A DNA stretch of 63,969 nt, filler included, from Folioceros fuciformis (Eukaryota), in assembly GCA_049999805.1 (NCBI GenBank). It is 3 parts of one record of this genome, joined end to end, with 100 filler letters (N's around TTAATTAATTAA, not from the genome) between each part and the next. Parts side by side here need not be neighbours in the genome. Positions count along the whole stretch, not along the records: positions 1 to 23,892 come from JBNGIO010006183.1; 2 more parts are not named here. One strand, written 5' to 3'. The number at the start of each line of letters is the position of its first letter. Position 1 is the stretch's first letter. The position numbers were made by a program, and so were the translations under genes. This document shows, piece after piece, positions 18,605 through 51,568 of the stretch. Below the pieces are notes generated by a model, which had not been told where the DNA came from, did no database searches, and saw only the letters and a list, made by a program, of their open reading frames with translations.

Positions 18605-21600
18605 CTATTCCTCATTAGGGCCCTCCTCTACATCAAGCTTTTGAGGCAATTTAACAAGCTCGTATTCAAGCTGTTGAGGCATTAGTGATTTTCTCCAACC
18701 AGTTGCACCTGGTTGGGGAACCAAAATGGATCTTCTAGTGGGGGATGGATTAGATAACTTTCTAGGTATTGATTGATTAAAGGATGCCCTGTTGCTAGAA
18801 TTGCTAGAACCACCAAATGTATCCATAGAGCTTCCGTTGTTGAATGAACTACGAACACCATTAAAACCGTCTTGCATCATTGCGACAGATGGCTTTGAAA
18901 GATTAGATAATATTTCGCTTGCCTTTTCCGAACCTTCTTGTATAACTTGAATAGATTTTCTAGCTATTTGTGATACGGTTGTCATTGGTGATGCATTTAC
19001 TCCTACATTATATACAAAATATTGATTAATAAGAGCAAAATACTTAATAAATTAAACTTCAAGAGTTGTTAAACATACGGAAAACCTACATCTCAAAACT
19101 TTATTACAAAAGAAGAGATGAAAATCCATCTACCATCGAAAGAAAGTGGGCAATCCAATAAAGAGCACGTACCAAAACTAGCATCCGCTAAATCGATATC
19201 ATCTCCGCTTCGTTGCCATACTTTAAATGCTATAATTGAAATAATTGCAAGCAAAGTTGCAGACCCTATGCTAGATGCAATTATAATGATATTTTTTTTT
19301 GAATTGGTAATACTTCCTGGTAATGAGGAATCGCCTGGGTTTACAAAGGCAGTCGCTAATTTCTGGGTAACATGTAAATCAGCAACTTTTCTACAAGTTT
19401 CGTTAATGTTTGAAACCCATCCTATAGCACAATAACTACAATCAATGCCGGCGTATCCTGCAGGAAAATCAAAGACACAAGTTGAGATTAATTGATATTT
19501 ACAAAGATATTATTTTATATAAAAAGTTATTGAATGAAGAAGGAGCTATACCCAAGAAACAATCACATTGTCCACTTGCATCTAGACAGTGTCCATTTCC
19601 TGCACATGCAATTCCTGCTTTTGGACCTATCGTTGGTACTGGACATGGGTTGGGTACGTAAGGACAATCTTTTAAACAACAATATTTTTTGTCCGAGCTC
19701 GCACTATTTCCTTGCTTATCACATCTTTCCCCCTTTTCGCACATTCCATTTCCACAAATACCAAATCTTTGAATATTGATTACATCCGTAATTTGAATCG
19801 CATCAAACATCTGTACCATACTCACTTCTAAGAGATATAAAATAAGGATGTTATTTTTTTAATTTTAATAAAAAATATCAGAACAATAATTTAGAATTTA
19901 GAGTTCAAATTTTACATCATTATCTTCAGACTCTAGAAATGTTGCTTGCATAAGTGAAGATCGTGCGTCATTTTTTTTCACATGCATGTTTCTCAAAAAA
20001 GTCTAGAAAATCAAAATAATGAAATAAGTAAATAATATATTACAATACCTAATTCAATATCATAGTCTCATTTCACACATTAGACTCTATGAAATAGTCT
20101 TATTTTTTTTAGAACAACAAGATATAAAACCCATCTACCCTAAACTAAGATCATAGAAATCCATTCTTGAAGCACTTATACAAAAATTTGTATGGTAGGT
20201 ATATGTTTAGTAGATTGCTCTTAGACTTTGAAGTATGATACTATGAACTAGTAAGTAAAACGCACAATATTGTACCAGTGGAACTGGAAGAATTGTCAAT
20301 TTAAAAACTCCAATAGACAAGGATGTTCCACCATTCATGCAGTTTTCCATATCTTCACTATTCGTTGTACAATCCATGCTCAAGCTATTGGAAATTTGCA
20401 TTGAGTTCAACAACACAGCAGATGGCTGAACTCCTAATCGAGAGGATACCTAACAGTTTATCCAAACATAATTTAGAAAAAGGATAAAAAAAATATGAGT
20501 TAATCAAGTGGGATACTGTAGATGTGAAGAAAATTAATATCCATAAACTACATACGCTTTGCACAAAAGATATCATGAAGTCTTTCCAAATAGAGGAGCC
20601 GTTTACGTGGAGAGACATAGTGGCATTTATAAATTCTGTAAGAATTGTCACATTTGTTCCACAACTGGTACCATCTCCGTTGCAAATATGACATTCATCT
20701 AGGACACCACTCTTGCAACAAATTCCCTTTTCATCCCGAACAGTAGGGCAACATGTGTTTTGTGAATCCAGAGACCTACGTCAATGCAAACAATTAACTT
20801 GCTTCTATTGTGGCTAATCAATCTTGAAGCAAACCAATGAATGATATCATCTTGTACTAAAGGCCTGAGAGGAAACTCATACTTAGATTTCCCGTCACAT
20901 ACACCACAAGCATCTAAATTCCCGCTTTCGCAACAAAATCCATTCTACAAGAGTTGGTGAGGTAGAATGCATCAGCATGCTTCGTCACAAATCATACATG
21001 TGTGCATTGGGTTTTAGAGGAACATAGCCGAAGAACATTGATACCTGATCAAGTTTTGAGGCATTGTTTGCACAACAATGTTGATATGCATCAATGGTTT
21101 TAAATGGACAGCAACTGACATTTCCATTTGGAAGGTAACCCATTGGTTTTCCCTTACACACTATAGGTCTATCGCAGTATTGTCCTTCCCATTGTGAGGA
21201 GCAAGTACATTGCCCTGCCTGCAAAGTCAAACCCATGCCCCATATTCAATTCATAAAAGAAAACAAAATCTCATCTTAAACTAATTTTCATTCATGATAA
21301 GACTTTCTAAAGTTGATGGGTTTTCATAGAACTTTAACTTACTACACATTTTCCATTTCCAGAACAATTATTGTAGTTGCAATTGTCACAATTGGGATCA
21401 ACTTGTTCGCAGTTGGTTGATGAGGCTGGTTTTAACAATGGATCACAAAGTGATTCAATAACAGAGTCTCCTTCTCCATCAACGCACTAGCAATGTATTC
21501 ACACAATAGTATAATTGTCAATTAGAGTAAATAATCTTATTCAATAAAGTATAAATTATTGATTGTCTTACCTCAACCACACGGTAAACAGTAGCATTGC

Positions 21601-23892
21601 ACTCACTAGGGCATCTTGACCAGTGACCAACCAGCCAAGCATATGTTGCACAGGGCTATGATCCACAAAGACATTACACAAAGATGCTTTCTTAAAGATT
21701 ATTTCTTACAATTTAGGACATTGTTGGATACACATAGATTAGATAAACAAGAGGAAATATGCATATTAAAAAGTTAAAATTATAGTAGAAAACCTTAGAC
21801 AACCTTTACAACAACAATATGCACACCTGGTCATTACATCGTGACTGCACTCTTGGAGGGTCACCAATACATAAGGCATCATCCACAATTGTTTCGTTTT
21901 GCATACAAATACTATCACGAAATCGGAATCCTCCAGCACAAGGCACGTTGCAAAAGTTCCAATTGGGTACTCTCCAGTATGTGCTATTGCATGCTTGTGG
22001 ATTACAACTTCGAGTCTCAGTATCTAACGTGAGCTTCGAGCACATGGAAATATCTGCTATATTTCCAAAGTTGTCAACACAAACCAATTCCCTGTGAAGT
22101 TAGGCTGCAAAGTTAGACTAATACATAGTGCTTTTGCGATACAATTTAAAAATGATAATTGCAAGTGGGATCTAATTATGCAACCTGAATTGAGAGCCAG
22201 AGCCACAAGTCTGGTTGCACTCACTCCAAGGACCTTTAAACAACTTGTATGTTTGGCACGCCACATTATTACAACTCTATGGAGAAAACAAATTATAAGG
22301 ATAATTTGAATAAGTGACATGAATTTGCATAATGAACACAAACTCCATATTTATATCTCACTTGATTTAATTGTGGAAGAGGAAGATAATCACAAAAACT
22401 TGCATTCACCGGCACTAAATCTTTATCATAACATTGCATAACGGCATGCTGGCCATAAGGACATTTCACAAGAAGCAAGATTGAATAGTTAACATTCATA
22501 TAAGATACTTGATGTAAATGGTATAAAATAAAATTACACATACACCTTATTTCCTCCTCCACACGGTTTGTCACATAAACCCCAACCAACAGGGCTCCAA
22601 GAATATTCAGACGTTGTGTCTTGTACCAATATTGGTGGTTGTGATTCCATCTCACAACCACCCTTAAGTTTCCAATTAGTGCAAACAACTAATGGGTCTG
22701 CTTGCATCGCATAATGTATTTTTGAAGTGGAAAAAGCGGCAAACTTAGTTGTTGATTTCTTCTTATCTAAAGAAAATCATTTTACTTTATTTTTCATATT
22801 ATATTATATTGTAGTACCATACAAAATATTTTTATTATTAATTTTATAAAAATATTAGAAAGTTTCTATTATTATCCCTTATATAGTGGTTTAATGGGTA
22901 ATGCTTAGAATATATTTTACAAAGTAAAACAAATAATTTTAAAATATGATGAAGAAATTTAATGAATGACAGCTTACCATTTGGTCCTTTCACATAAATA
23001 TCAAATGGACCTTGATCTCCTCCAAAGCCATCAACCATCTAATATGAAAGCAAAACAAGAAGGATGTTTATGAGTATCATGTTCATCATATCACAGGGCA
23101 CCTAATTAATATTTCAAATTTTAAGAACAAAAGCATATCTAACTTCATCCTAGACACCAAAGTACATCAAGGTTTGTAAAAGAACTCACAATTATATACA
23201 CATGGCCCTTAACAAATGAGATTTGTGGGATCATTGATTGAGCATTACAAGCATCGTCATTGCAAGCTAGTTGATGCACAGTTTGGGCTGTTTTTTCATA
23301 AACTGATAGTAATGTATCAAACTCTGTATCTCCACACAAGGAAATATTTACTACCTGGAAAGCAAGCTTATTGATTTTGATTCATTCATTCATTGTGGAA
23401 CCCTAAACCTTGAAAGTTCTTTTCATTATGTAGACACATTTAAACCCTAAACCCATTGTCAAATCTCAAATTTGGATACTTTGAGCAGATGAAATGTTCA
23501 AGTTAGATGGGCTTTAGGCTATCTTCCATTATGGGTCGATATCTTAAATGAGTGATATAATTCAAACTTAGGCTTATGAAAATGTACCATTGTTTCAATA
23601 GCTGTGAATTGAAATACTGTATCTGGTCCAGAACTATGACAAGAGTCAAAATCCGAATCATATATGTTTTTATAATTTGACGTGTCATCCTCATAGTAAA
23701 AAGGAAGACTAGGAATTATTTTTGGTTGTGCAATCGATTGACCGCAAGGATTATTCGGTGTCTGTCTACACACCGCTATCCATTGAAGAAAACATAAAAT
23801 CTTAGAAAGAGAAAGTCATAGAGTAACATACATTTTTTGCAAGTGAAAATTACAAACCTGTATCTCTAGAAGTAAGGAAGCCTTCAGGAATC
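18605..23892 (-). CDS. Multi-exon Cys-rich type-I membrane protein with 4 TSP1 repeats and EGF-like domains; 5' end lost in gap
   Basis: TSP1 exons: WSPVGWGLCDKPCGGG, GPWSECNQTCGSGSQFR, PNWNFCNVPCAGGFRFR, GHWSRCPSEC. EGF-like: CSGNGKCV|AGQCTCSSQWEGQYC and CAGNGHCLDASGQCDCFLG|YAGIDC. Cys repeats LDACGVCDG and LDECHICNGDGTSC. TM segment IIIIASSIGSATLLAIISIIAF, then a Ser-rich tail ending at TAG 18605. The GT-AG junctions I checked are frame-compatible. Confidence 0.85.
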
Positions 23893-23992
23893 NNNNNNNN
23901 NNNNNNNNNNNNNNNNNNNNNNNNNNNNNNNNNNNNTTAATTAATTAANNNNNNNNNNNNNNNNNNNNNNNNNNNNNNNNNNNNNNNNNNNN
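23893..23992. other. Assembly gap with artificial linker
   Basis: 44 N + TTAATTAATTAA + 44 N = 100 bp; the linker gives stops in all six frames. Confidence 0.97.
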
Positions 23993-24084
23993 GGACCGGC
24001 AAAACCAAGGAGGGCGAAATGGGGCGAAATGCCCCGGTTGATGCTCCCTTGACTGGAGCGATTCGCAGTGCAGAAGGAATCATT

Positions 24085-24119
<35 letters not shown>

Positions 24120-25262
24120 TTCTGCTGCACTTTCTCGCTGCCTTTTGATGAGGCTCGCCTACAATTTCTTCCACCTTGGACGTCGCTCAATCTTCACCTT
24201 GGCCTCCTTTCCTTTGTAAAAATTGTCTTTCCCTGGGATGTGCAATACCATGCGCGTGTGCCCCGCCTCCGCCTTCACGTCCAGCAGCAGCTGCTGGGAA
24301 TCGCGATCTTTCTACTGGTCCAAGCGTGTGCCTTTCGATCCTGCTTCAGCGCCGGGCTCCGTCGTGTTGGTGGAACATCTGCAGTCTGCTGGGTTTGCTC
24401 CTTCTCAGCGGGATCTGTGAGCTTCGCCCGGGGAAACGCTAATTTCGGGCATTTCAGGCTGCATCCCGTCCCGGCTAGTGTGTTGCCTAGTGTGTTGCTT
24501 CAGCCTCTAGCGCATTGCCGAGCTGCAGGCAGGGCCGATCTAGCTCAGGCTGATGCGCGGCATGCTGGAGTGCGAGTAGGTGGGCTGGTGGTAGAAGAAG
24601 CAAGGTTCTTCTGACACGGGAGTGCAGGTGCAGAGTGAAAGCTCCCCCGCCCCGGAGTACACCGGCTGAGCTGCATAATCACTTTCTCTCACTGTCTCTC
24701 GTATGTGGGGAAGGCCTAGTGCATGCCGTACGCGTTTCAGTAGCTGCCTGACTGTGCCGGGGTTTGCACACGGAGAAGGTTGCGCTCCGCTTGAGCTTGT
24801 CGGCAGCTGGCACATCTAGCGTTGTGCGGCTCCATCCCGACCTTGGCACCGTCGCTCCTCGTTTGCAAGTCACCGGGACTGATCCCGCGGGCTGGCTTAG
24901 GTACCGGTGCAGCTGGCAGGCAGGGCACGGTGACGAGCGCACTAGCTCCAGTCGCTCCTGGAATTGTGCTTTGCGCAGGCTGCTGCGGCTCCCAGATTCT
25001 GGTTCGAATCAAGGTGAGGGTTGGAAGCCGGCTGCTACTGATGCTCGCAAGTGTGGATTTCGTTGCTTGCAACGGCCACAAGGCAGTTGTCTGCTCATGT
25101 GTCATGTTCGTGCATTGCTCCCTGTATTTTCGACTGTTTCCGTTCCTGATCCGGTTGCAGACCGCTCCTGTGTGATGCACAGGACTTGGACTCCGTGGCT
25201 CGTGTAGCAGGAGGTCTACTGCTCACTGCCGGTGGAGTGGATAGCCCAACCATCTCTTCAGA

Positions 25263-27239
25263 ATGTACCAGATGAAGAAGTACACGAGTACTCCTCTTGT
25301 GCCTCATCGGGGTCCCCTGGGGCCTCAGCAGCCCAGAGACAGTCTCTACACAACCTCACTTGGTGGGGATGGACTTGTCACCTCAGCGGATCCGAAGCCC
25401 AGGCTTCGTTGGACTCCTGAACTCCACGAGCGCTTTGTTGACGCTGTCACACAGCTTGGGGGTGCTGACAGTAAGCACGCCACAGGACCCTTGACTGTTC
25501 ATCTGAAAAATGTGTGGTGCCAGGCAGAGGCGCAGCCTGGTGAAACGAATACTTTCACTCATTCGTCTTCGCCATATTGCAGAAGCAACACCAAAGACTG
25601 TTATGCGGGTGATGGGAGTAAAGGGCCTAACCCTTTATCATTTGAAAAGTCACCTTCAGGTACCGCCCGTCGCATTCTGCTTTGGCCCTGCTCATGTGTG
25701 CAGAGATCCTCATGCCACATGAGATGTTTTGTCATCTGTGATAGCCTGCACAATACCCTTGTTTGTCGGCGGTGCAGAAGTATAGGCTGGGAAAGCAGTT
25801 CCATAAAGACTCTCACCAGGACAGTAAGGATGGTGAGATTTTTTCCACCTTGGTGCCTTCATGATCTCCTGCCCTCGTCATGTGTTGAGATGTCGTTGTG
25901 GTGCTTTCGGGTTGTTTCCAGGATCGTCTGAAGTGCCTACGAGTACTACCTCTGGCGCTGACAATGTTCCCTCCCAAAATCCCACGGAGTAAGAGCCGCT
26001 CACAGTTTGCTTCGATTTTTTTTTCTTCGAAGAATTTTGCCTTCAACGGTGAGGGAATTGTTTGTAGCCTCATTTAATTCTGAATCTGGATCTGCAGTAG
26101 CTTGCAAATCACTGAAGCTCTCCGTCTACAAATGGAAGTCCAGAGAAGGTTGCATGAGCAATTGGAGGTAAGTTTCAGTGATGCACTTCTAGAAAAGGTG
26201 ACTGCCTCGTATCTGTCCTGGAGGAGATAATGCTGACCTTTTTTTCTGGTCCCTTGCGTATGTCCTCTAGGTGCAGAGACATCTTCAATTGCGAATTGAA
26301 GCACAGGGGAAATATTTGCAATCAATTCTGGAGAAAGCTCGCGAGACTCTGGCTGGCCATACTTCAACCTCACCTGGGCTCGCTGCTGCCGATAATGAAC
26401 TCTCTGATTTGGCCTCGAAAGTTTCTGATGAAGGTCTTAACTCCACTTTCCCTTCATTGATGAGCGCACCTACATTGACTGTACCTGCTATGCCTGATCT
26501 GTCGGAACTTGGGGGAAATCAAAGTTCAACGCAACTGCAGTCACAGTTCACAGACTCTTCTCCTCAGAGCTATCTAACGAGTCTGTCAAGTGAGAACAAT
26601 GAAATGAATGGTAACGAGATTGAGCAAAGAACAGGTATGCAGAGATTTAGACAAGATCTGTTTGGTAGTGATGGAGGAGTAATCAATGCAGATATGCATG
26701 GGGAAGAGGCCAGACCACAAGGGAATAGTGTCAACTCCATTCAAGTGGGAGGGAATGGTAGTCAGGAAGGAATGTTGTTCGAAGGGTCCGCCCAGCGAAA
26801 TCCTGCCTGCGACGTGTCCTTGGGAAGGATGTTGGTTGGTGGGATGCAGCCTGTCGAAAATGCTGAAGAAGCCCAGGCTTCACAGAATAGTGTGATGAGG
26901 ATTAAAAGGCAACCTGAATCTGCATTCGCAGAGTGGTCCACTTGTACTCTTGAAAGACCTGCTGCTAGGAGAGGCTCAACTATTGTTGCTGAGGAACGGA
27001 TGTCCACTATCGTTAAGGCTAGTGCTGTGTCTCTGCAGGGAAGCTACCCAACTGATGAGGCCACAAGAAATGCAACGGACTGTGGGGACGCATCTGGCCA
27101 ACCCGAAGCTCCTGCCAGCTGCAAACGGCTTAAGGTGGTGGAAGGACTGGATTTGAACTCGAGAGGGCCAGATGCTGCCATTCCTGCCCAAAGTGGACCT
27201 GAGCTGGATCTTAATGATAACTCTGGGTGGGATAGGTGA
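25263..27239 (+). CDS. GARP G2-like MYB-CC transcription factor (PHR1-like/PHL family); 6 exons
   Basis: DPKPRLRWTPELHERFVDAV..LGG..KATPK..LYHLKSHLQKYRL and coiled coil [34 protein letters not shown]. Exons 25263-25470, 25583-25659, 25778-25832, 25922-25988, 26098-26167, 26271-27239. Confidence 0.95.
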
Positions 27240-28232
27240 GTCCGATGCTTTCCAACAGGCATATCTGTTGCCCGCCGTGTATTATATATCACTGTGCAGT
27301 TAGATAACATGGCTTTTGTTTGACGGATTACCAACTCCATGGATACGACGGGCCTGTGAGGTTGTATGGGGGTAGGTCCGCCCTGGAGGAGGTGGTTACT
27401 CTGCTGCTGTATGAGTCAGCTGGGTACCCATTGCGGCACTGTACATACGGATTTTTCAGGTTCTGAGGATTACATCAGTACCTATTAGCTGACGGATATT
27501 TCATTTATGTCTGATGTCTATGTACATAGCGTAATACCTGTCGTCCAGAAAGGCTGTATTCGAACGACAGGATGGCCTTATTCGACACACTTATCGACCG
27601 GGAAAGGGTTTATTGTATGTGTGGTTCGAGTACTGGAGTTTCAGGAGTTATGGGAGGTGCGTTCCGTCTTCAGTCGGGAGATTTTTGTTGTTAGGAGGTG
27701 AGGGCTCTTCACATCTGAATATTGAGATACCTAGACTATTTATAAAGCGGGACGTGTCTTTATGTGGCAGTCTTTTGCGTGCGAACTAGGACAAGTATGT
27801 ACAAAGGAGTATACAGTTTTGGAATTATATGCAATCATGAGAATCATGACTCTTTGTAGGATTGTATCACTTTTCCGTGTAACTAGCGTTTGTGCTACCT
27901 ACTTATGTAGTTTCTTACCCAGGCTGTGTTGTGTAGTCGAAGTTGGTGAGGAGAAAGGGTAGTTGTTACGGTTACATATTCCGAAACGTGCAAAACGCCC
28001 ATCTTTGAATCGATCGACCCGCGCCCGCGCCCAGTCCGGTTCTGCTTGTCTCACTCGTTTCGTGTCGTTAATCGTGCCTGAAAACAAGTACATAAGCAAA
28101 TGGTGCGATAGTACATTTCAATGATAAAGAAAATACTTCATCTGCTCCCGGCGAGACCCCTGAGGCTCCTCATCCACGAGTTCCTAAACGACAAAAACTA
28201 TAATAGTACACGATCTGTGCAGGATCAGATCA

Positions 28233-28305
28233 CGCCGCCCGGGGGGCTCGAACCCCCGACCACAAGGTTAAGAGCCTTGCGCTCTACCGACTGAGCTAGG
28301 GCGGC
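28233..28305 (-). tRNA. tRNA-Lys(CTT)
   Basis: GCCGCCCTAGCTCAGTCGGTAGAGCGCAAGGCTCTTAACCTTGTGGTCGGGGGTTCGAGCCCCCCGGGCGGCG folds as a cloverleaf with A and B boxes and anticodon CTT. CAA lies just upstream and a T5 run ~35 nt downstream. Confidence 0.96.
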
Positions 28306-28899
28306 TTGCTCGACGCTTTGTCCCATTTCCAGATCAAGGCAAAGAAACCAGAGACGCCCGTAAGGATCCATCTGCGCCACGTGCAGCGCCTGGCGATCTT
28401 CCCCTTCCCATTCAGTGATGTGAACCCCTCTACGAGTGCCGCCTCCGGTTTCAAAGAACCGCTTTCACTTGGGGCGGCCGTTTCTGTCGCTCACGATCAG
28501 AAATGCTGGTCCAGTCCGTAAGCCTGTTCCACCCACACCGTCGAGTGTCTACCGCTGGGCCGGTTCGCTGCATTGCCTCAGCTCTAGGTTCTATAGCTTT
28601 TGTTAGGCCCCGTCACGATCCAGCCGGGCGTGCTCAGGTCCAAATTGCGGTTCCGTCAGCAGCTGCTGCCCAGGTCAATCTCATCCTGAGCCTGTGATTG
28701 TGACATACGAGCAGGTGGGACAAGGAGTCGGAGAAGGTACTGTACGCTGGGATGTGACCCAACATCCTCACCTTTGCTGTAATGTCAAAAAGTGTCACCA
28801 AGTAACACAAAGAGAGTGTCTTGTCAGAGGAAACCAAGGAACTCGTCCATGGGCTTCACGCCATTGGCACCCACGGGACTGCTGAACAAAGATATCTAG

Positions 28900-30958
28900 A
28901 GATGCTTCTCATCTCCAACCAAAAAACTAAGCACCAGACCGCCCTGGTCTGTCCACCAGCTTTGCCCTGGTTGCCTTCATGCCCTGATCGCCTTTCACCT
29001 CCTCTGCACCTCATGTGCCTGTTCCAACATTTGCACACTGATGTATATGTTTGTCATCAGCACATATGCCGCGGCGTCCTTCTCTAGTTTCATTGCTTCG
29101 TTGAAAGCATAGCGTCCCGCCTTCACGTTACTCCCCTTTTGACAAACACCAACAGCGTGTGTCAAACTGCACCATCAGGCAATACAGGCATTGATCTTGC
29201 CAAAGCTAAAACTAGTGCCTGATGCAGATGTCCTTCTCGACCTACGAGATCCACCATACATGTGTAATGCTCCTCTGTTGGAGGGACGCCAGACAACCTC
29301 ATAGCCTCAAAGTCCTCCCACCCCCTCTCCACTAGACCCGCGTGGCTGCAAACTCGGAGTACGCTAAGGAATGTGATGCTGTCTGGCACTATGCCTTCCC
29401 GCGTCATTCTCTGAACCAAGCGAAATGCTTCGTCACACTCTCCTTGACAGGTGTAGCCTGCAGTCAAAGCATTCCAGGTGACAATATTTGCCTTGGGCAG
29501 TGCATCAACCATGCTCCCGGACTCCCCGTACATGTTAATCAAACTGCCGGCCACGTTTGTACACGCCTGAAGTAGGCACATGAATGTCATGGAGTTGGGT
29601 GTAGTCATTCCTTCATCCTGCATAGCACAGTAGGGACGAAGGGATTCCTGCCCCATGCCCTGCTGGGAATATCCAGCTATCATGGCAGTCCAAGTCACCA
29701 CATCTTTTTCACGAAGTCCATCAAACGCAGTTTCAGCACTTTCCAGGCTGCCACACTTGGCATACATATTCACCAAACTGCTGGCAACAAATACATCAGA
29801 TTCGTACCCTTAATCCCTAATCTGAGCACGAAGCTGCTTCCCCTTGCCTAAAGCTGAAATCCCTCAACTGGCATCTGCCTGCACGAGGCACACAAATGTC
29901 ACAGAATTTGGTACAAGCATGCCCTTTTCTAGCATAGCACTGTAGAGATCAAAAGCCTCCTTGCCCTTCTGGGAATATCCTGATATCATGGCAGTCCATG
30001 TCACCACATTCTTCTGACCAACTGCATCAACCACTCTCCGGGCATCTCCCAAGCTGCCACACTTTGCATCCATGTTCACCAAACTGTTACCTATAAACAC
30101 TCCAGCTTTAAAGCCTTGGTCTCTTACCTGTGCATGAAGAAGATTGCCCTTCTCCAGGGCTGGAGGGCCAACACTTGCACATGCCTGCAGGATGCAGACG
30201 AATGTCACAGGATTGGGTAGGACCAAACCTTCTTCTTGCATCGCATGGTACAGACGGAGGGCTTCATGCCCTACTGGGAATGCCCTGCTACCATAGCATT
30301 CCACATCACCACATCTTTCTTGCCAAGTCCATCAAACACTCTCTTGGCGTCTTCTAAGCTGCCACACTTTGCATAGCTGTCCACCAAGCAACTCGAAAGT
30401 AACAGATTCGGCTTGACACCACTGGCCAGCACGTCAGCATGCAGTTGCTGCCCAGGTTTCAAATAAGACCCCCGTGCACAAGCCTGAAGGGCTGCCACAA
30501 GCACATTGGCCATCTGGCTTCACACCGGACCTTCTCATTCGATGATAAAACTGTAGAGCCTGCTTGTCTTGTCCGTGTTGTACAAGCTCGGAAATTATAG
30601 CAGACCACGTGAAAGCATCCGGCTGAGCTATGGCTTCGAACACGTCCCCCGCGTCTTGCAACATGCCATGAGCAGCATACATTCGCAGGATGTGGAAGCC
30701 CAGGGACGTATCTGACTGGTACCCCTTCCTCACTGTAAAAGAACGAACGTGGCTCCACCGAACAACATCCTTGTTGGCCACACATTTCTTCAGAACAGTG
30801 TAAAAGAGGGTTCCGGAAATGCAACGGCCCAACTGCACAAGAACGTCCAAGGCCTCAACAGCCTGGGTAAGATGCTCCTCATGACACAGCTTGCTCACGG
30901 TTTCAGCCGATACGCCCATGTCGTGAACAGCAGGGCCGCCAGGGTCAGGATCATCCAC
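28900..30958 (-). pseudogene. PLS-class PPR protein pseudogene with E domain and PG(WW) box
   Basis: Repeated motifs LVNMYAKCGSL, DVVTWTAMI.GY and P..VTFVC.LQAC; E-domain YVLMTNIY; PGQSWW at 28953-28970. Frameshifts near 30510, 30275 and 29130; in-frame TGA at 29864 and 29162. Confidence 0.9.
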
Positions 30959-32595
30959 GATCCATGGTCAAATGCATGATGAGCATATATGATACCCATA
31001 TCCGGAGCAAGCTGCCCATCGATCCGACCTGGCTTGGACACGTTCAACCACACCCGAAAATCAGGTTAAAAGAGTGGCTTCGCATTTCGCCTGCTATCCT
31101 GCTTGCCCAACCAAAATCTCTCCTTGCTGCCACCCTAAAAGAATCGTCTCCAGCCACATCCGCCCTTACACTGGTTGGCTGTCTTCCACAAGTGCTGCAT
31201 CTCCTGACATGGCTGCGTGCAAATTCTTTGTTCCTTGATTCCCGTCGAGCGAAAGCCTGGCCTACAGTACTCGGTAACCCACCAGCCATGGCTCGCAGGA
31301 GCACGTCGCGTTCTCGGGATCCAGGCTGACAGACCCACGCAGACGACGTCTCGTCTCGTAGTGGAAGGTTGCAGGCTTTCCACATTATGCACGATGCATG
31401 ACTTCGCCGTGCGGGATAGGATACAGCATGTATGTATATGTATATATTGACACAAAGACTCTCTCCAGCCGTGCATCTTTATGTATGTCTATGGTCACAT
31501 ACCGGCATCTTGCCATTCCGAACATGGTGCATTTATAAAATATACATATGGCCAGTTAATAAATTTATTTGATAATATATATTCAAAATTCTCTAGATTA
31601 CTTTTTTTCTCTAATCTTATAATTAAATTATTTAAATTTATTTTAAAAAAACTATCTATGAGAGATACATAGAGATACTAAGAGCGAACCCCAAAGCCCA
31701 ATGACTATCAATAGCACCACCTAAAATATTTAAAAGATCTACTACTAAAGCTGCTTAGGCAACTTCTCTTACTAAATATATTATATTAGCAATATATTAT
31801 AAATATATTATATTATATTATATTATATTATATTATATAATAATATTATTTCAATGCCTTGATAAAGATCCCTCCTCATGGGACTTATAAAAATTCGTCC
31901 ATGCCCGGAGTTCCGTGTGGAAGGACCGTAACCATCTTCGTCCTTGTCAAGCAAACCGGTGGAGGGTTTCGTCCAGTCGGTGCGTATATACTATGTGTGC
32001 ATGTAGATGCCAGAGCCCCGTTTCACGCGACAGCAACCGTTATGATAATTCCAGGGTTCCTATGAGGTGTAAAGTAGATGACAGCGGAAGCTGTGGCGGA
32101 CGGTGGGAACGTGGCTCGTTTGGCGAATGCTTAAATACTGTTCTGTGTCTCCCGCGGGACAAAGTTGACTCAATCTACTGCCGGAATGCGCGAACCGAAC
32201 TTCGCGTTACGGCCGCGCCCGTTTTTCATATTTTGATCGTTTCCGCGCTTCGACGATCCCTAGGATCAGATTTTCCAGCTGTGTGCCAGTCGAGGACGCG
32301 CTTAGTGCTGCCTCCACTAAGCCCCAGTGCGCGGGCTCGGGTCTCCCACCAGGAGCAGCGCATGAATCCGCCTCTCAACGCTGCTGCCTGCCTGTGGGAC
32401 GCCCGCCAGCCCTGGATCGCTTCCAGGTCGAGCTGCGGGCTGGGGCAATGGAAATGGGAGGGTGCTGGACTGGAGCTGGTCACGGATCTGGTAGCGGGAA
32501 TTGGAGATGATCAGATCGCGTAGGTGGAGGTCCGGATCACGCTGAGTTAGGAAACTCGTGTGCGGATTGGGGACCAGGTTGCAAAGGCCCAGACA

Positions 32596-35120
32596 ATGGA
32601 GCGCAAGCCGGAACGGTTGTACTCGGCCAGGTTCAAGCTTGGCCGACAGTCCTCTCTCCAGCCGAAAGTGGATTCTCAACCTGAGGAAGACGGGGACCTC
32701 ACGCCTGAGGACGAAATGTCCCCTACGGATCAGGACATGGACGTCTTTCAATTGCTCTTCTACGCTCACGAGGGGAATCTGGAAGGAATAAAGTCCCTTC
32801 TTTCGGGAGGATTGGACGTCAACTCCGCGGATCTTGATAAACGCACGGCTTTGCACGTTGCTTCCTGCGAGGGCCACTTGGGGGTGGTCAAGTATCTCAT
32901 ACAAGAGAAACAGGCCAATGTGAATGTGGAAGACCGATGGGGAAGCACGGTGATGCCCGGTTTTGTGGTGCTGTCTGTGCTGTGATTCAATTGCTTTTTC
33001 GATTTTGCGTTTTTGCGCGCATTCGTATGGCACACCTTGACTCTCTGGATAATTGGTGGTTTCCAGCCGTTGCGAGATGCAAACCACTACGGGATGAAGG
33101 AGGTGTCGGAGTTGCTGGAGAAACACGGTGGCAGGATACCTGTTAAGTCTTTTCACCAGACCCTTGTCAAAACTGTATGATTGAAATGGGAGATAAGTCT
33201 TTCGTGGCTACGTTGCCTTTAGGATATCGTGGTTGGTTGTTTGGGATCATTCTTACCACTCTCTGAACCTGTTTTGTGATATGTTGTGGCTCCTCGTTTT
33301 TGTTCGCAGAAAAGCTTTTCATCCATGCGCACCGAGAATCCGCCCGAATATGAAATGAACCCTGACCTTCTACTTTTCGTCAAACCCATTGTAAGTGCAA
33401 TTTGTTCAACCCAGTCGTGTTCTCACTTCCTTAGTCCCACCGAAAGTGTCTTTTGGCCTCTTCATCTTTGTTGGAGTATGTTTTTCAGCATCAAAACGGT
33501 TTTACCATCTTCAGGATGGCAAAGGCAACTATAGCGAGTACAACATGACAGGTACCAAAGTTGTTGTGAAAACTCTGTCCAGCCGAGCTGTGACCACGGA
33601 GAATTTGTAAGTGTTGTGGGCTGTGTAGATGCAGTCATTGAGTCTGCGAGGACGGGTGTAAGAAGACTCACGTTCGTTGAATGTTTGCAGATCATCTTTT
33701 AGAGATGAGCTGAGGGTATTGCAAAAGCTGAGGCACCCAAATGTCGTCCAGTTTCTCGGTGCCGTTACTCAGACAACGCCAATGATGATCGTGACCGAGC
33801 ATCTCCCGATGGTACGTGCATCCTTGTGGTAAAGGACGACTTTGTTTGTGTCTGAATTCAGTGAAATCTTGTGGGGATACTATTGCAAATGAATAATGCT
33901 AGATGACATTTGAGACCCCAATGGCAGGTTTTGCGCGATTATCTGGACAAGAATAAAAGGCTGGAGCCCGCAAAAGCAGTGAAGTTTGCTCTTGATGTGG
34001 CAAGGTAAAGGGTAGTTCAGACATGTGTAAAGCCAGACAAGGTCGAGCCTCTGGAGCTCCCCCGTTCTGAGATTGTTTGCCTGTCCTGTACGCATGACCA
34101 GGGGAATGAATTACCTACATGAACGCAAGCCAGAAGCTATTGTCCTTCATGATCTGAGTCCTAGGTAATGTGAACATCTGTGGTCGCTGGCCTGTTTTCA
34201 ATATCTTCTCTCCACTACCACGAGGATCCAGTGAGTCCTAATATTGGTCTGTCTGAAGAAGTTTCTGGGACATATCACTCATCAATCTACCTTCCAGCAA
34301 GCTATCAGAAGCCTCATGCGGGACAAAGGACGTCATGTGAAGGTGGCAGGCTTCGGTGCAAGTCTACTCCTTCGTGAGGGTCAAGGCGGCCGCCTCCGCT
34401 TTTCTGATTTCAGCACAAAGGTCCGACCATACTACGGGCACGCAGACGAAAGCCGTAAGTCCTATGTGCGCAATGGTTGTCTGGCTCACCAGTGCTACTG
34501 AATTGGACCCCATCTGCCAGTCTATCCTGCCTGGACTCTGTCAGAGTCTCATCTAACCCCCGTCTCCGCGGTTAGGTCGTTACATGGCTCCCGAGTTGAC
34601 CAGAGAAGAAGACTATGACTGCCGTGTGGATGTCTTCTCCTTCGCGTTAATTCTTCACGAGGTAATTGTTGTAGTGGGAAATGAAGTCATCTTGCCTTTT
34701 CCGTTACTAATGAACTTCTGGCGTTTGCGTGGTTCTAAGGCGCCCATCCTTCCGTTGCAGATGATTGAGGGTGCCGTTCCCTTTGCAGAGAAGTCGGCTG
34801 AGGAGGCTGCCAAGTGTTACGCCCAAGGTGACAGGCCTCCATTTAGGGCCAGCTCGCGGCATTATCCTTGCAACTTGAAGGGGTGAGAACTTGGGCAGCT
34901 ATCAAACGATCCTAGCTTTTCAGCTTGTGTGCGTGAGTACTAATAGACGTGATCTGGCAGGCTCATAGAACAATGTTGGCGTAGTGAGCCAAGCAAGAGA
35001 CCAATGTTTGACCACATAATCAAGGATCTCGAAGAGATCCGCCAGCGTTTGAAAGATAGAAAGTGGGTTGCGAAGTTGAAGAACCTCTTCAAGGATAAGG
35101 GCTCCTCCCGAGGTGTCTGA
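32596..35120 (+). CDS. ILK: Integrin-linked-kinase-type ankyrin-repeat Raf-like kinase; multi-exon
   Basis: N-terminal RFKLGRQSSL; ankyrin repeats DLDKRTALHVASCEG and DRWGSTP; kinase motifs LRHPNVVQFLGAVTQ, DVARGMNYLHE, YMAPE, DVFSF. The last exon (34961-35120) ends in TGA. Confidence 0.93.
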
Positions 35121-35456
35121 CGGGGTTGGGCACCAGGCTTCAATGCGGCCTATACCGATCAAAGTCAGGCTGTGGAAGCTTGTATTATATAGTGATAGCA
35201 GTCTTTTATCCCAAATGGGCATTGTTTTGATGGAACGGAAAAAGTAAGAGGCCTATATTGTTTGTCCAAAAAGTTGAAGGTTTTATTTATTGATTTTGGA
35301 ATGAAATATCTAATTTTAATAAAAATATATTTTAAGAGAGATTTTAAAAAAATAAAATAATTATATTTTTATATATTAAATAATCTTTAGTCGTGTAAAT
35401 TTTGTAAGCAAGATCTTAATTGCATTAGGATAGGGGATTCTACAGGTGGATCCCAC

Positions 35457-35740
35457 CCTTGCTTGGGGGCTCAACGAATGGGAGACCTTGCTTAGTAAAT
35501 AGCAGGCTCAATGGATTGGAGGCCTTACTTAGTAGATAGAGGGCTCAATGGATGGGAGACCTTGCTTAGTAGATAGAGGGCTCAATGGATGGGATAGAGG
35601 GCTCAACATATGGGAGACCTTAATTAGCGGAAAGGGAGCTCAATGGATGGGAGACTTTGCTTGAGGATAGGGGGCTCAATGGATGGGAGACCTTGCTTAA
35701 GGGATAGCGGGCTCAATGGACAGGAGACCTTGCTTAGCTT
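35457..35740. repeat. ~37-bp minisatellite, about 8 degenerate copies
   Basis: Unit gggctcaatggatgggagaccttgcttagtagataga, e.g. at 35541 and 35578. Confidence 0.9.
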
Positions 35741-35750
35741 CTACTATTTG

Positions 35751-35895
35751 GCAGATGAGATATGTGACTTAAGAGATGTGTCTTTTGCAGATAAGATATA
35801 TGATTTAAGAGATGTACCTTTTGCGGATGAGATATGTGACTTAAGAGATATGCCTTCTGCGGATGAGATATGTAACTTAAGAGATGTGCCTTTCA
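35751..35895. repeat. 36-bp minisatellite, 4 copies
   Basis: Unit gcagatgagatatgtgacttaagagatgtgtctttt at 35751, 35787, 35823 and 35859. Confidence 0.9.
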
Positions 35896-36740
35896 GTCCA
35901 CATAAGGTGATCAGGAAATTTTTGTATTGGTGGGATAGGAGTGACTTTCGGAATTTTGGATGAATGTACCTAATTGGGCAAACTTTCTACAAAACCAAAA
36001 TGGACTTTGTTGTGGTTAAGCAAAGGGCACCACAATCTCTCTCTAGCACTTGAGCTTTTTGTTGATACACAGCTAACCACTCATGCCATGGATCTACTCA
36101 AGTGTCCACCCATTTTGTTCTTAGATGTATATGATATGATTGCCAAGGGAGAATCATGCATATGTAGTCAACTAACAAATGGCTTGGAAATCACAACATT
36201 GTGACCACAGGTAACAATTTCATGTAGCTCTGTGAACTCACTAGCTTATAATACTTTTGTTTCTTAGCATCTATGAACCTATAGGCAGTAGATGATGAAA
36301 CCTATAAGTGATAGATCAATATATCATCATCTCATCATAGAACATGAACATAATAGGAATACCATAGAATTTGACTCGCATACTGTCCAAAATCAATTCT
36401 CTAACCCCCAAGGTTTCTGCAAGATAGCCTACCAGCTTGAGCCCAAGATCAAGCTCATGCTCAAGCTAAAACTTCAACCCGCATTCCACATATCATCACG
36501 AGAAGAAATTTGTATATCTCATTTAAAATAACTATATATTGGATGAAGAAAACTGTATATGTCATAATAAAACTAAAATGAATAGACTTCAGAGATTGTA
36601 GTGCTGGGTTGTATGAGTATGAACAGGTGATGTAATATGTTATAACACTAAACTATTATGCTAATTTTTATGTCATCCTAGGGATATAATGTCATTATAT
36701 TAGACTATGATGCTAGTTTCTTGGTCTTTCTATACATATG

Positions 36741-36840
36741 NNNNNNNNNNNNNNNNNNNNNNNNNNNNNNNNNNNNNNNNNNNNTTAATTAATTAANNNN
36801 NNNNNNNNNNNNNNNNNNNNNNNNNNNNNNNNNNNNNNNN
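36741..36840. other. Assembly gap with artificial linker
   Basis: 44 N + TTAATTAATTAA + 44 N. Confidence 0.97.
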
Positions 36841-37541
36841 GGATGTATGGTTCCATACCATGGATGAGAATATTCTCTCCACATATTCCATTTTAGTGAT
36901 ATAGAATAACTTGCTGGTATGAATAAGAACATCTAGAAAATATAGAGAACATACAACATAAATTTTGTGTCAAACCAAGCAACCTCTTCGGCAATGAGAA
37001 ATAATATAATAATCCTAATAAGTCTCCTGCAAGACCTTTTCAAAGTGTACAGGTTTTATAAAATCCTAATAATTTAGAATAACTTGCTAGTATGAATAAG
37101 AACATCTAGGAAATGTAAAGAATAAAGTCTATTTTATTAAAAAAAATAGATTATATGTAAAAACAAAAAACACTTCCTGCACAGCCACATCATGGTAATT
37201 GGTGATGACTCCATGTGTAACTTCTAGCAATCATACCTTGCTAGTCATATCTCTTTAGGTTGGGCAAGAATGTTAAAGAAGAGTAAATAATATTAGGGTT
37301 ATGAAAAAATATATTTTATGTATAATTATTTTTAACCAGGATTATGAGAGATTAATTCATGTATTTATTCCCAATTATTTATGATATAAATAATTATTTA
37401 AAATTAATCCCAAAATATGGCACTAGAAAATATACAAATAAAAACTTCATAAATTCTCTACAACAAATAAACATGCGAATTATTTTTAATCTATAAAACA
37501 GTTTTGCCTCAATGCCCTAGAAAGAATCACACCTACTCAAT

Positions 37542-50071: not shown

Positions 50072-50918
50072 CGTCCCACTGTATACATGTAGATTTCTGC
50101 ATTGGTTTCCCCTTCCCAGAGCTCACCACCCTTGAGCGCGGCCACCCTCGAGTGCGCTCCCACCCACCCAGTTCCTTGCAAAGACCATGCGAGACTCCAT
50201 TTTTGCCACGAGTTCTGATTGTTTTTGGTGGTTAAAACCGCCCACCAGAGTGAACAGTTGAACGAAGAGGGAGGTCTGTTATGAGCTCTACGTGCCGCCG
50301 CGATGCACAGGCTCGCGGTGCCGAACACCAAGCTCTCAGTATCGGTTCCCGGTGCCCCTGTTAAGAAGTTAGTCACTACCCTGCCATCAGGGAAGTTTCC
50401 ACGGCACTGAGAGTCTCTGACTGGCTGTAATGTCCTGACAGCAAGGCAATGCGATTTGATATCGATGTGATTGGGCAATTTGTTCTTGATGCGATTGTGA
50501 TGAGTGAAAGAAACGTCGGGATCGTGACGGAGGCAAGCCCTCCGTGTCCGGACAGGCGGACAGCGTATAGGAAGTGACCGTTGATGACAGCTGAGCTTGG
50601 CGCGGCTTTCCTGGCAGGTGCAAGCTGGCTGCCAGCAAGTTCCGCGCTCTCTTCCGCTGCTCGAGCAGCTTCGCGCTGGGGACAGCTCGTCCCCCGCGCC
50701 TTGCCTGCCTTCCGAGCCTTAAAAGGCCATGGCGACCTCCCTGATTCCATCAACAGTTGCTCGCTGTCCTCCGCTTCCATCATCGCTACCTCCATCGCAC
50801 CTCCTTCTGTTTCGCCACATTTCTGCAGCGCCTGGCTCTGTCCCCCTTCACTTCTTTTCCGCAGCCGCTATCACAGCTCCCTCTTGGCCTGTGGCGAATC
50901 TCACACATTTCGGAAGCC

Positions 50919-51568
50919 ATGGCTGGATCTGGCGTCTGCTACATCGGCATTCTTCTCCTGCTGGTACTCACCGCAGCGCAGGCACAAGGCAGGGTTCTGA
51001 GCAGCAATGAAGAGCGCACTGCGGGAAGACGCGCGCTCAAGGCCCTGGTGCCGGATCAGCCCCTGGTCCTGGAGTACCACGGCGGGAAGGTGCTGGGAGC
51101 CGGGGCTGGCATCAATGTCTACATTCTGTGGTACGGCGCCTTCTCCCGGGTGCAGAAGAACATCCTCAACGGCTTCATCAAGTCCATCGAGCTAAGCGGG
51201 GGAAGGAGCCCCAGCGTGACCAGCTGGTGGAAGCTCACGGCCGGCTACAGGGATGCCACAGGCGACACCGTCCCCGCGGCCGTGAAGCTGGCAGGGCAGG
51301 CCGAAGACAAGGGCTCCTTGGGCAAGAACCTCAAACAGGCCGACCTGGACTCTCTGGTGCAGCAGGCTCTGGACTCCAAGAAGCTACCTGTGGACGCGCA
51401 CGGGCTGTACTTCCTCCTGACCGCGGCCGACGTCGCCGTGGAGGATTTCTGCATGAACTCTTGCGGCAGCCACGCCGTGCTCAAGGGGCCCGCCAAGCTC
51501 CCTTTCGCTTGGGTCGGCAACTCCGGCAACCAATGCCCCGGCATGTGCGCCTGGCCGTTCGCCGCCCC
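50919..51568 (+). CDS. EXORDIUM/Phi-1 (phosphate-induced protein 1) family; 3' part lost in gap
   Basis: Signal peptide, then LEYHGG, YILWYG, PSVTSWW, LTAADVAVEDFCMNSCGSH, WVGNSGNQCPGMCAWPF. Confidence 0.93.

Follow-up and report, generated by a model that had tools for sequence, protein, structure and literature searches.

Extent of the gene

Why does a plant genome carry thrombospondin type 1 (TSP1) repeats, textbook matrix modules of animals and apicomplexans, and to what kind of protein do they belong? This question is raised by a locus of Folioceros fuciformis (assembly GCA_049999805.1) in the window, by which I mean the whole stretch of 63,969 nucleotides that was analysed. An earlier note had placed here, between 18605 and 22740, a gene for an uncharacterised type I membrane protein with TSP1 repeats, interpreted as an adhesion or receptor protein. 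The gene is a multi-exon gene on the minus strand, running from a TAG stop codon at 18605-18607, which coincides with the lower limit given, upstream to 23891. The proposed upper limit of 22740, however, falls within exon 4 and is not the gene start, as coding exons continue to 23891: five more lie upstream, spanning 22978-23891, the first of which is cut by the contig end. In the 18-exon model the product has at least 999 aa and no internal stop, and all introns (82-273 nt) have GT..AG borders.

The contig end at 23892 interrupts the gene, and the joining linker N44-TTAATTAATTAA-N44 is located there. Neither a start codon nor a signal peptide was found in the window part of the gene, and an ATG is absent from exon 0. 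What the window shows is the C-terminal part of a gene cut by the contig end, and an annotation starting at 22740 would be wrong.

Relatives with a protease domain

Six bryophyte relatives were compared, from Calypogeia fissa (P0004), Marchantia polymorpha (MPTK1_3g13090, P0117), Riccia (P0118 and P0119), Physcomitrium patens (P0120) and Sphagnum (P0121), to which the window protein is 37-45% identical over 782-873 alignment columns. With phmmer, residues 2-824 of the model match residues 541-1358 of P0004 in a single stretch (756 bits, E 3e-229), and from residue ~541 of the orthologues on, the model is colinear with them through the ectodomain, the transmembrane (TM) helix and the tail motifs. 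The tblastn matches of P0004, P0117 and P0120 are also colinear with the model exons, from their residue 541-566 onward; no other locus in the window matched the family by tblastn with eight relatives as queries. Compared with the bryophyte orthologues, the window copy misses the first ~540 residues (signal peptide, propeptide, S8 domain and linker domain), because the contig ends. No description of the family was found in the literature searches made, nor experimental data for any member, so the epithet uncharacterised still fits.

Peptidase_S8 is found in the six bryophyte proteins and in a Trebouxia protein with 120-142 bits (the two Riccia proteins by a precomputed domain list, the other five by Pfam scans), and the catalytic Asp, His, oxyanion Asn and Ser are conserved in all seven S8-bearing relatives. 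TSP1_ADAMTS is present in all six bryophyte proteins and stays below the cut-off in Trebouxia (21.1 vs 23.8 bits). The best solved relatives of the orthologue catalytic domain are aqualysin and proteinase K-type enzymes, followed by PCSK9. Within the window tblastn gave no match to an S8 domain, the sequence upstream of 23892 lying outside it. The missing 5' part probably encodes a signal peptide, a propeptide and an S8 domain, the presence of S8 in this gene being an extrapolation from its relatives.

Judging from these sequences, the window contains about two-thirds of a gene of land plants, at its 3' side; the complete protein is most likely an extracellular serine protease of the subtilisin type (S8A, proteinase K/aqualysin type) that is tethered to the membrane in type-I orientation. 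The window part encodes everything that follows the catalytic region: a PPC-like domain, four TSP1 repeats and an EGF-like module, then CC-rich 'DxCGVCxG' units, a SEA-like domain, a CGNGxCExGE motif, another EGF-like module, the TM helix and the 149-aa tail.

The earlier interpretation supposes a non-catalytic TSP1/EGF protein without protease, acting in cell-cell, gamete or symbiont recognition. In its favour, the models of P0012 (Selaginella) and P0009 (Diphasiastrum) comprise the TSP1-EGF-Cys-TM module without an S8 domain, with a signal-like peptide directly before the TSP1 repeats in P0012, and several other matches, some of them algal, show the same module without S8. Moreover, the named relatives among the matches listed (14 in one list, and 120 of 385 in another) are mosses, liverworts, lycophytes and green algae, that is, only seed-free plants and algae; the lack of fern and seed-plant names among these matches is a weak observation, as ADAMTS proteins crowd the second list. 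The ectodomain probably serves for binding in the protease-bearing form as well. However, a PPC-like domain and the linker exon upstream of it are present in the window gene, features which among the proteins retrieved occur only in S8-bearing proteins (7/7), and it groups with the S8-bearing bryophyte clade, apart from the lycophyte clade that lacks S8. Since this is the C-terminal part of a contig-cut gene, and since all seven relatives sharing its N-terminal domain carry S8 with an intact triad, a stand-alone adhesion or receptor protein seems unlikely to me, and I prefer the membrane-tethered protease.

Exons and domains

Exon 0 (23858..23891, on the minus strand like all others), which the contig end truncates on its 5' side, encodes ..IPEGFLTSRDT(A), corresponding to the last part of the stretch that connects the S8 protease with the domain after it in the orthologues. 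It has GTTTGT as donor and joins exon 1 in the correct phase, aligns with P0004 541-550 and with Marchantia 'SPEGWITAQDTG', and matches the orthologue segment immediately N-terminal to the PPC-like domain. This beta-rich domain starts in exon 1 (23588..23775; PKIIPSLPFYYEDD...PDTVFQFTA), which shows 53-55% tblastn identity to P0004, P0117 and P0120, has its core in exon 2 (23190..23354; ISLCG..FDTLLSVY...CNDDAC) and ends in exon 3 (22978..23038; VDGFGGDQGPFDIYV). Its PPC / galactose-binding-like label is only a lead, coming from an Atlas search with exon 2 only (PPC / GBD_T9SS_assoc clusters, 0.77-0.83); PPC (PF04151) and P_proprotein (PF01483) gave no Pfam match in the exon pieces or in the four orthologues scanned (E<=1).

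Exon 4 (22546..22766) contains a poorly conserved linker and the first half of TSP1 repeat 1 (WSPVGWGLCDKPCGGG), of which exon 5 (22362..22448) contains the second half; Pfam detects the weak start of a TSP1 repeat in 22537-22776 (10.6 bits, E 0.71). The first half of repeat 2 (WSECNQTCGSG) lies in exon 6 (22185..22276), its end and the whole of repeat 3 in exon 7 (21827..22091). Against a cut-off of 23.8 bits, TSP1_ADAMTS (PF19030) scores 26.3 bits for exon 6 (ORF piece 22175-22276(-)), where TSP_1 (PF00090) scores 26.0 bits, and 43.3 bits in two stretches for exon 7 (ORF piece 21809-22099(-)). The W..W / C..C.G / R pattern is found in repeats 1-3. Repeat 4 (WLVGHWSRCPSEC..., 21572-21655) has its first half in exon 8 (21572..21655; PCATYAWLVGHWSRCPSEC) and its end in exon 9 (21343..21486); as an exon piece it has no Pfam match, and it is assigned by its alignment with the fourth TSP1 stretch of the orthologues, four such stretches being found by Pfam in P0004, P0117, P0120, P0121 and P0012. 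The four ADAMTS-style repeats of the earlier note are thereby confirmed, two exon pieces scoring above the Pfam cut-off and the fourth repeat following from the orthologue alignment. A thrombospondin proper (TSP-1) was rejected, the type 1 repeat being the only shared part; type 3 calcium-binding repeats and the TSP C-terminal domain had no Pfam match in window pieces or orthologues.

Both EGF-like modules are split by introns, the first between exon 9 and exon 10 (21045..21218), the second between exons 15 and 16. On window pieces, EGF_2 (PF07974) scores 20.0 bits for exon 15, just under its cut-off of 22.1, and EGF_Teneurin (PF23106) scores 19.9 bits for exon 10, under its cut-off of 24.3, whereas the aligned orthologue modules, with conserved Cys columns, exceed the Pfam cut-offs (e.g. 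30.9 and 28.9 bits in P0012). Two EGF-like modules are probably present, as claimed, but the intron-split window pieces themselves remain below cut-off. Exon 10 also encodes the first CC-rich unit (47-54% identity to orthologues), and further units follow in exon 11 (20883..20944), with LDACGVCDG, and in exon 12 (20556..20775), with LDECHICNGDGTSC. DxCxxCxG occurs twice; the full DxCxxCxGDG reported before overstates the pattern, as the GDG is seen in one copy only.

Exon 12, which is 52-55% identical to the orthologues and gave 116 matches at E<=1e-3 as query of a representative search, continues into an alpha/beta domain that has its middle in exon 13 (20276..20449) and its end in exon 14 (19916..20002). 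Exon 14 has no tblastn HSP of its own, which makes it the least certain exon of the model; it was kept because it restores the orthologue spacing (45 aa vs 42 aa in P0004). SEA domains have a ferredoxin-like fold, adjoin the membrane and often contain a GSVVV self-cleavage site. In the AF2 model of the relative P0007, from which the fold of this region is taken, the beta-alpha-beta-beta-alpha-beta order is as in SEA, most 10-residue blocks having a pLDDT of 62-94. The best PDB match by Foldseek is the Gpr126 extracellular region (E 2.9e-3), with none at E<=1e-3; the window sequence shows no GSVVV-like site, and Pfam SEA had no match in the orthologues scanned. The SEA-like assignment, made on a predicted structure, is only a lead.

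Exon 15 (19552..19810; 44-53% identity to orthologues) encodes the Cys motif GICGNGMCEKGERC...CCLKDC, with CGNGxCExGE columns that are invariant in the alignment, and the first half of EGF-like module 2. Its second half, a stalk, the TM helix and the start of the tail are found in exon 16 (19173..19457), and exon 17 (18605..19002) encodes the cytoplasmic tail, in which the motifs RRS and WRKSLM as well as YELV occur, up to the TAG. The single TM helix (IIIIASSIGSATLLAIISIIAF, 19225-19290; Kyte-Doolittle peak 2.35 at residues 829-830) and the tail of 149 aa after it bear out the one helix and tail of ~150 aa noted before. All 70 Cys and all 14 NxS/T sequons are N-terminal to the TM helix. For the type I layout, the one helix is in place but the signal peptide is not in the window, so that this part rests on the signal peptide-like N-termini of the orthologues P0004, P0117, P0118 and P0119. 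The tail is shorter than those of the liverwort proteins and contains conserved basic-Ser motifs and a YxxPhi-like signal; its RKSL(L/M)M motif is common to the window protein, Calypogeia, Marchantia, Riccia fluitans and P0007.

Integrity and origin of the gene

The odd composition of the gene (GC3 28%, CpG o/e 0.45) could reflect a silenced locus. A decaying or silenced copy, a pseudogene in the making whose AT-richness results from methylation-driven C-to-T decay, would agree with this low GC3, with a CpG o/e that elsewhere amounts to 0.64-0.70, and with a TpG/CpA of 1.31 vs 1.16-1.24 in other stretches above 45% GC. In addition, a LINE lies ~270 bp past the stop codon, and the window's own protein was not found in a large protein set (proteins of 171-2000 residues). 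However, stops, frameshifts or loss of Cys would be expected first, whereas the reading frame is open through all 18 exons, the splice sites are canonical, the window protein has Cys at 58 of the 59 columns where at least five of the six bryophyte orthologues have it, and the TSP1, EGF and Cys-rich modules retain 47-60% identity to the orthologues. Decay is therefore very improbable, and a protease gene cut by the contig end remains the preferred reading.

In the tree, the window protein falls in the moss and liverwort S8 clade with 99% SH-aLRT, not nested within the liverwort clade, and this S8 clade is sister to the lycophyte forms. By this position with mosses and liverworts, the gene is an inherited plant gene and not a contaminant, despite its low GC3; the earlier note was right in placing an animal-style TSP1 protein in a plant. 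Animal ADAMTS proteins match the TSP1 region only, covering 21-31% of the query at 28-31% identity. It is hardly credible that the AT-rich 5.6 kb at the contig end are foreign, whether by contamination, by chimeric assembly or by a recent animal or protist transfer: the composition does step sharply at ~18330 and at the contig end, GC3 of the CDS is 28% against 40-65% in 11 neighbouring ORFs, and TSP1 repeats are familiar mainly from animals and apicomplexans, but the closest relatives are those of the moss and liverwort clade, the ADAMTS similarity is confined as stated, the step at ~18330 lies near the end of a plus-strand LINE-like element on the same contig, which fits an insertion beside the gene, and other non-coding stretches of the window are equally AT-rich (25-31% GC).

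Comparison with known proteins

The plant protein resembles animal ADAMTS and ADAMTS-like proteins in its TSP1 repeats of the ADAMTS Pfam type (PF19030) and in a 'DxCGVCxGDGSxC'-like motif after these repeats, a motif known from the ADAMTS Cys-rich domain; the combination of a protease, here that of the orthologues, with TSP1 ancillary domains is also shared. In contrast to ADAMTS, the orthologue protease is an S8 serine and not an M12B metalloprotease, and the plant protein is membrane-anchored with EGF-like modules, the similarity being confined to the TSP1 region. Reprolysin, disintegrin-like, ADAMTS spacer, PLAC and GON had no Pfam match in P0117, P0120, P0121 and P0124 (E<=1). Membership of ADAMTS was rejected, as the M12B, disintegrin-like, Cys-rich and spacer Pfam families are absent from the window pieces and the orthologues have S8.

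The furin/PC family, S1P/SKI-1 and Plasmodium SUB2 consist of a signal peptide, a propeptide, an S8 domain, an ancillary and a Cys-rich region, a TM helix and a cytosolic tail with sorting motifs, a layout shared in outline with the plant family; these enzymes are not known to carry TSP1 repeats. PfSUB2 has been described as a membrane sheddase with a TSP-related protein as its substrate. The orthologue catalytic domain is closest to bacterial aqualysin/proteinase K-type enzymes and PCSK9, not to kexin/furin, with no P_proprotein found. In plant SBT (cucumisin-like) subtilases a PA domain is inserted into the S8 domain and an Fn3-like domain lies at the C-terminus; Pfam matched neither of these two in the orthologues scanned, whose best PDB matches are bacterial proteinase K-type enzymes. 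The apicomplexan adhesins of the TRAP/MIC2 type also have TSP1 repeat(s), a single TM helix, a short cytosolic tail and a type-I layout; the plant protein differs from them by the absence of a vWA domain, by four ADAMTS-type repeats with EGF and Cys-rich modules, and by orthologues with a protease. None of these observations points to a shared ancestry of the entire protein with TRAP/MIC2.

Possible function and implications

By analogy with the ancillary domains of ADAMTS, the TSP1/EGF/Cys-rich ectodomain may tether the protease to the cell surface and direct it to matrix or cell-wall partners, and the tail could govern trafficking or regulation. A bolder and rather doubtful proposal sees in the family an ancient counterpart of ADAMTS in the green lineage, a serine protease tethered to the membrane that would act on the extracellular matrix by means of TSP1, EGF and SEA-like modules. 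It would have been kept from green algae to bryophytes and lycophytes and lost in seed plants, and would be required for a process that depends on water, for example sperm release, gamete contact or the accommodation of symbionts.

These comparisons show that a conserved family persists in seed-free land plants in which a proteinase K-type subtilase is combined with four TSP1 repeats, EGF-like modules and a membrane anchor, an architecture that parallels ADAMTS with a different class of protease. As orthologues are present in the tractable models Marchantia (MPTK1_3g13090) and Physcomitrium, a knock-out is approachable, and could address the role of extracellular proteolysis at the plant cell surface as well as the apparent absence of the family from seed plants.

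Results

The window gene is a minus-strand chain of cysteine-rich coding pieces at 18605-23892, separated by short AT-rich gaps in stop-to-stop frames, in a eukaryotic region. Assembled by splice sites and reading phase, the pieces give a model of 18 exons (0 to 17, numbered from the 5' end) and 999 residues without an internal stop, ending in a TAG at 18605-18607, and all introns (82-273 nt) are of the GT..AG type. The earlier note had placed the upper end of the gene at 22740, which is wrong: this position falls within exon 4, and coding goes on upstream with the rest of that exon and with 22978-23038, 23190-23354, 23588-23775 and 23858-23891. The most upstream exon lacks an ATG and reaches position 23892, up to which neither a start codon nor a signal peptide is present. 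Positions 23893-23992 read N44-TTAATTAATTAA-N44, with stops in six frames, and I read this as a joint between separate contigs. As the identical 100-base linker is found again at 36741-36840, the window looks like three joined contigs (1-23892, 23993-36740 and 36841 to the end), and parts on either side of a linker may not be true neighbours. Since 23892 adjoins such a linker, the gene is cut at its 5' side by the contig boundary. Exons 0 and 1 (..PEGFLTSRDTAVCRQTPNNPCGQ..PKIIPSLPFYYEDD) align with Marchantia ..SPEGWITAQDTGVCKKTATNRCGQ..PKVIPSLPFYYIDD, which settles their junction and requires that the coding sequence extends upstream.

Some alternative structures were dropped. Exon 0 in frame 2 ('FLKASLLLEIQ', with an acceptor at 23762) was abandoned as the orthologues fit the other frame, a model without exon 14 because the spacing relative to the Calypogeia orthologue P0004 speaks against it, and phase-2 donors ending exon 7 because an in-frame acceptor is absent. 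The CAG|GT donor of exon 7 brings back the 'C..PC' ending of the TSP1 repeat. Three short database proteins (P0001, P0002 and P0003, 76-158 aa), 58-67% identical to exon 12, read into intron-like sequence at the position of its donor (..D|VCGE, ..N|VSFQ). They resemble exon-level open reading frames of closer relatives whose genomes are unannotated, and support a conserved intron position after exon 12.

Pfam, run on the unspliced pieces with curated cut-offs, detects TSP1_ADAMTS at 21809-22099 (43.3 bits, cut-off 23.8) and at 22175-22276 (26.3 bits), while 22537-22776 gives a weak match to the beginning of a further repeat. EGF_2 (20.0 bits) and EGF_Teneurin (19.9 bits) remain slightly below their cut-offs, each piece being half of an intron-split module. 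The spliced protein contains the four TSP1 repeats and the two EGF-like modules that the earlier note had reported, as well as its single transmembrane helix (residues 829-850, window 19225-19290), followed by a tail of 149 aa where about 150 had been estimated. The cysteine repeats that it had written as DxCxxCxGDG are recovered as DxCxxCxG, in two copies. The observation behind that note is thus real, as judged from the Pfam matches and the features of the spliced protein. All 70 cysteines and all 14 N-glycosylation sequons lie N-terminal of the helix. Repeat 2 contains the only CxxTCxxG site, a candidate for O-fucose, and the WxxW motifs are candidates for C-mannose.

PPC, P_proprotein, SEA, ADAMTS spacer and ADAMTS Cys-rich domains were not found by Pfam in the exon pieces or, at E<=1, in four of four orthologues, and the N-terminal domain (exons 1-3) is likewise without a Pfam match in either set. 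In the ESM Atlas, exon 2 leads to PPC / galactose-binding-like clusters with scores of 0.77-0.83, below 0.9, and exon 12 gives only leads below 0.9, without names. A C-terminal domain of the PPC kind is common on bacterial proteinase K-type enzymes, which makes a PPC-like domain in exons 1-3 a plausible but unproven lead. The database relative P0007 was folded from a 27-row alignment (mean pLDDT 76.3, pTM 0.60), and in the predicted model the stretch of approximately 135 aa from the CC-rich units to CGNGxCExGE forms a beta-alpha-beta-beta-alpha-beta sandwich. Foldseek finds nothing in the PDB at E<=1e-3 for this model; zebrafish Gpr126 scores best, through its extracellular region (E 2.9e-3, 145 columns), ahead of ferredoxin-like ribosomal proteins. 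The stretch shows no GSVVV-type cleavage site, and its SEA-like nature is a lead only.

In the cytoplasmic tail, a segment RRxS...RKSL(L/M)M is common to the window, Calypogeia, Marchantia and Riccia fluitans proteins, with KKSLM in Riccia sorocarpa and WRKSVM in P0007 as its equivalents. It is followed by a YxxPhi-type motif, YELV in the window protein, YEGL in P0007, YAKL in Calypogeia and YARL in Marchantia. These motifs may serve sorting or phospho-regulation.

A word-index search of longer proteins with exon 7 gave 9 candidates, none of them significant; this weak evidence is superseded by HMMER, which, run with the 73 aa of exon 12 in full over 1.84 billion representatives, returned 116 proteins at E<=1e-3, 12 of them at E<=1e-10. 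Against these 116, the spliced model has a single outstanding colinear match, P0004 from Calypogeia fissa (1878 aa, 756 bits), with model residues 2-824 corresponding to residues 541-1358. The aligned part of P0004 in turn retrieved 14 proteins. Six are from bryophytes, namely P0004 itself, P0117 (Marchantia polymorpha MPTK1_3g13090), P0118 and P0119 (Riccia fluitans and R. sorocarpa), P0120 (Physcomitrium patens) and P0121 (Sphagnum troendelagicum), and one, P0124, is from the green alga Trebouxia. The other seven, from animals or unnamed, are metalloproteases or proteins with TSP1 repeats (five being ADAMTS-type), which match in the TSP1 region only (28-33% identity, 21-31% of the query covered). 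Identity between the model and each of the six bryophyte sequences is 37-45% (782-873 alignment columns). Their database names are restricted to hypothetical, uncharacterised, 'EGF-like domain-containing' and 'Peptidase S8/S53 domain-containing'. With tblastn, P0004, P0117 and P0120 recover the exon order of the model from their residues 541-566 onwards, and none of eight relatives matches the window outside the gene. Those relatives that bear a name belong to the green algae (Trebouxia, Elliptochloris, Cymbomonas), the streptophyte alga Chlorokybus, the liverworts, the mosses and the lycophytes. Neither a fern nor a seed plant is named among the 14 matches or the best 120 of 385 in a second profile search, a list so crowded by animal ADAMTS proteins that it cannot show absence from these plants.

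In all seven relatives that share the N-terminal domain of the window protein, this domain is preceded by a subtilisin-type Peptidase_S8 domain (120-142 bits), assigned by Pfam scan in five and by a precomputed domain list in the two Riccia proteins. All seven keep the catalytic Asp, His and Ser as well as the oxyanion Asn, and four have signal peptide-like N-termini. The nearest solved structures to the Marchantia S8 domain are of the aqualysin, keratinase and proteinase K type (E 1e-54 to 1e-71), and then PCSK9. Given this consistent arrangement, the coding sequence in the window most probably specifies the ancillary and anchoring portion of a subtilase tethered to the membrane. An S8 domain in the window gene is an extrapolation, because the gene models of the lycophyte relatives P0012 (Selaginella SELMODRAFT_425768) and P0009 (Diphasiastrum) are without one; the Selaginella protein starts with a signal-like peptide, with the TSP1 repeats immediately after.

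Composition raises the alternative that the gene is a contaminant or of foreign origin. Its coding sequence has 39% GC and a GC3 of 28% (40-65% in 11 other open reading frames of the window), its introns have 28% GC, its CpG o/e is 0.45 versus 0.64-0.70 in GC-rich genic stretches of the window, and composition steps sharply at approximately 18330 and at the contig end. However, non-coding stretches elsewhere in the window are equally AT-rich, and the step at 18330 is close to the end of a degenerate LINE-like element on the plus strand (15740 to approximately 18330, open reading frames in three pieces, RVT_1 28.6 bits with a cut-off of 29.6), whose 3' end lies approximately 270 bp past the TSP1 gene's stop codon, as would be seen had an element inserted next to it. 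The other two contigs carry the plant hallmark families Myb_CC_LHEQLE, PPR and Phi_1/EXORDIUM. Moreover, in a maximum likelihood tree (20 family members, 729 columns, quick search, SH-aLRT only, several rows deviant in composition, midpoint root for drawing only), the window protein groups at 99% with the S8 forms of mosses and liverworts and with one unnamed protein. The lycophyte pair is the sister group of this clade (99%), and the green-algal and unnamed sequences lie outside. The low GC3 and CpG could reflect decay driven by methylation, low expression or the composition of the region. Of 59 columns in which five or more of the six bryophyte orthologues have cysteine, the window protein has it in 58, and the TSP1, EGF and Cys-rich modules reach 44-60% identity versus 11-17% in the linker, so the gene looks to be under selection.

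Several other features were observed in the window. A (GA)n/(CT)n microsatellite at 24040-24110 lies immediately past the first linker, and comparable CT/GA and CA runs occur at approximately 600-700. A MYB-CC type transcription factor gene is located at 25245-27239 on the plus strand (Myb_CC_LHEQLE 40.1 bits, preceded by a weak match to the start of a Myb DNA-binding domain). On the minus strand, 29162-30967 contains a PPR gene or its remains, three open reading frame pieces with stops between them (PPR_2 95, 59 and 40 bits), which may be interrupted or decayed. No gene was recognised in the very AT-rich stretch 36000-37500, which flanks the second linker (25-31% GC in 500-base windows, CpG o/e 0.15). 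An unbroken 703-aa open reading frame from ATG (47960-50071, plus strand), very abundant in E, L and Q and coiled-coil-like by eye, has a hydrophobic C-terminal end, AAVVSGAAALAVGYTVI, and thus looks like a tail-anchored coiled-coil protein; Pfam gives only a sub-threshold DUF1664. At 50745-52775 (plus strand) a Phi_1/EXORDIUM-like gene (165 bits) enters a 400-N gap at 51569-51968; the frame stays open on the other side and encodes a Hydrolase_4 (S33) protein there (90.6 bits). The gap bridges two distinct genes, not the halves of a fused one.

Discussion

In this analysis I show the architecture of the window protein, the conservation of this architecture and its kinship to S8-bearing proteins. 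The orthogroup is present in public databases as predicted, unnamed proteins, and the gene is thus not new to sequence space. A search of the full texts of openly available articles turned up no description of a plant subtilase that carries TSP1 repeats, nor of Mp3g13090, and a broader search on land-plant subtilases brought up no relevant paper.

The TSP1-EGF-Cys-TM module is also observed in P0073 and other unnamed proteins with quite different N-terminal parts (K319L-like PKD, Fn3_assoc, CHB_HEX_C, DUF4215), and, judged from these sequences, it seems to be a reusable membrane-anchoring cassette.

For the proposed membrane-tethered subtilase, the zymogen would enter the secretory pathway, and the single transmembrane helix would anchor it so that the protease and the ectodomain face outward. 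Its TSP1, EGF, Cys-rich and SEA-like modules could then hold and orient the protease to partners in the matrix or on the cell surface, while the tail may control trafficking. The plant protein, being without M12B, disintegrin-like and spacer domains in the Pfam scans, does not belong to the ADAMTS proteins, nor is it a thrombospondin proper. By analogy, the proposed plant protein would nevertheless follow the same logic as ADAMTS and the membrane-bound convertases, with other building parts.
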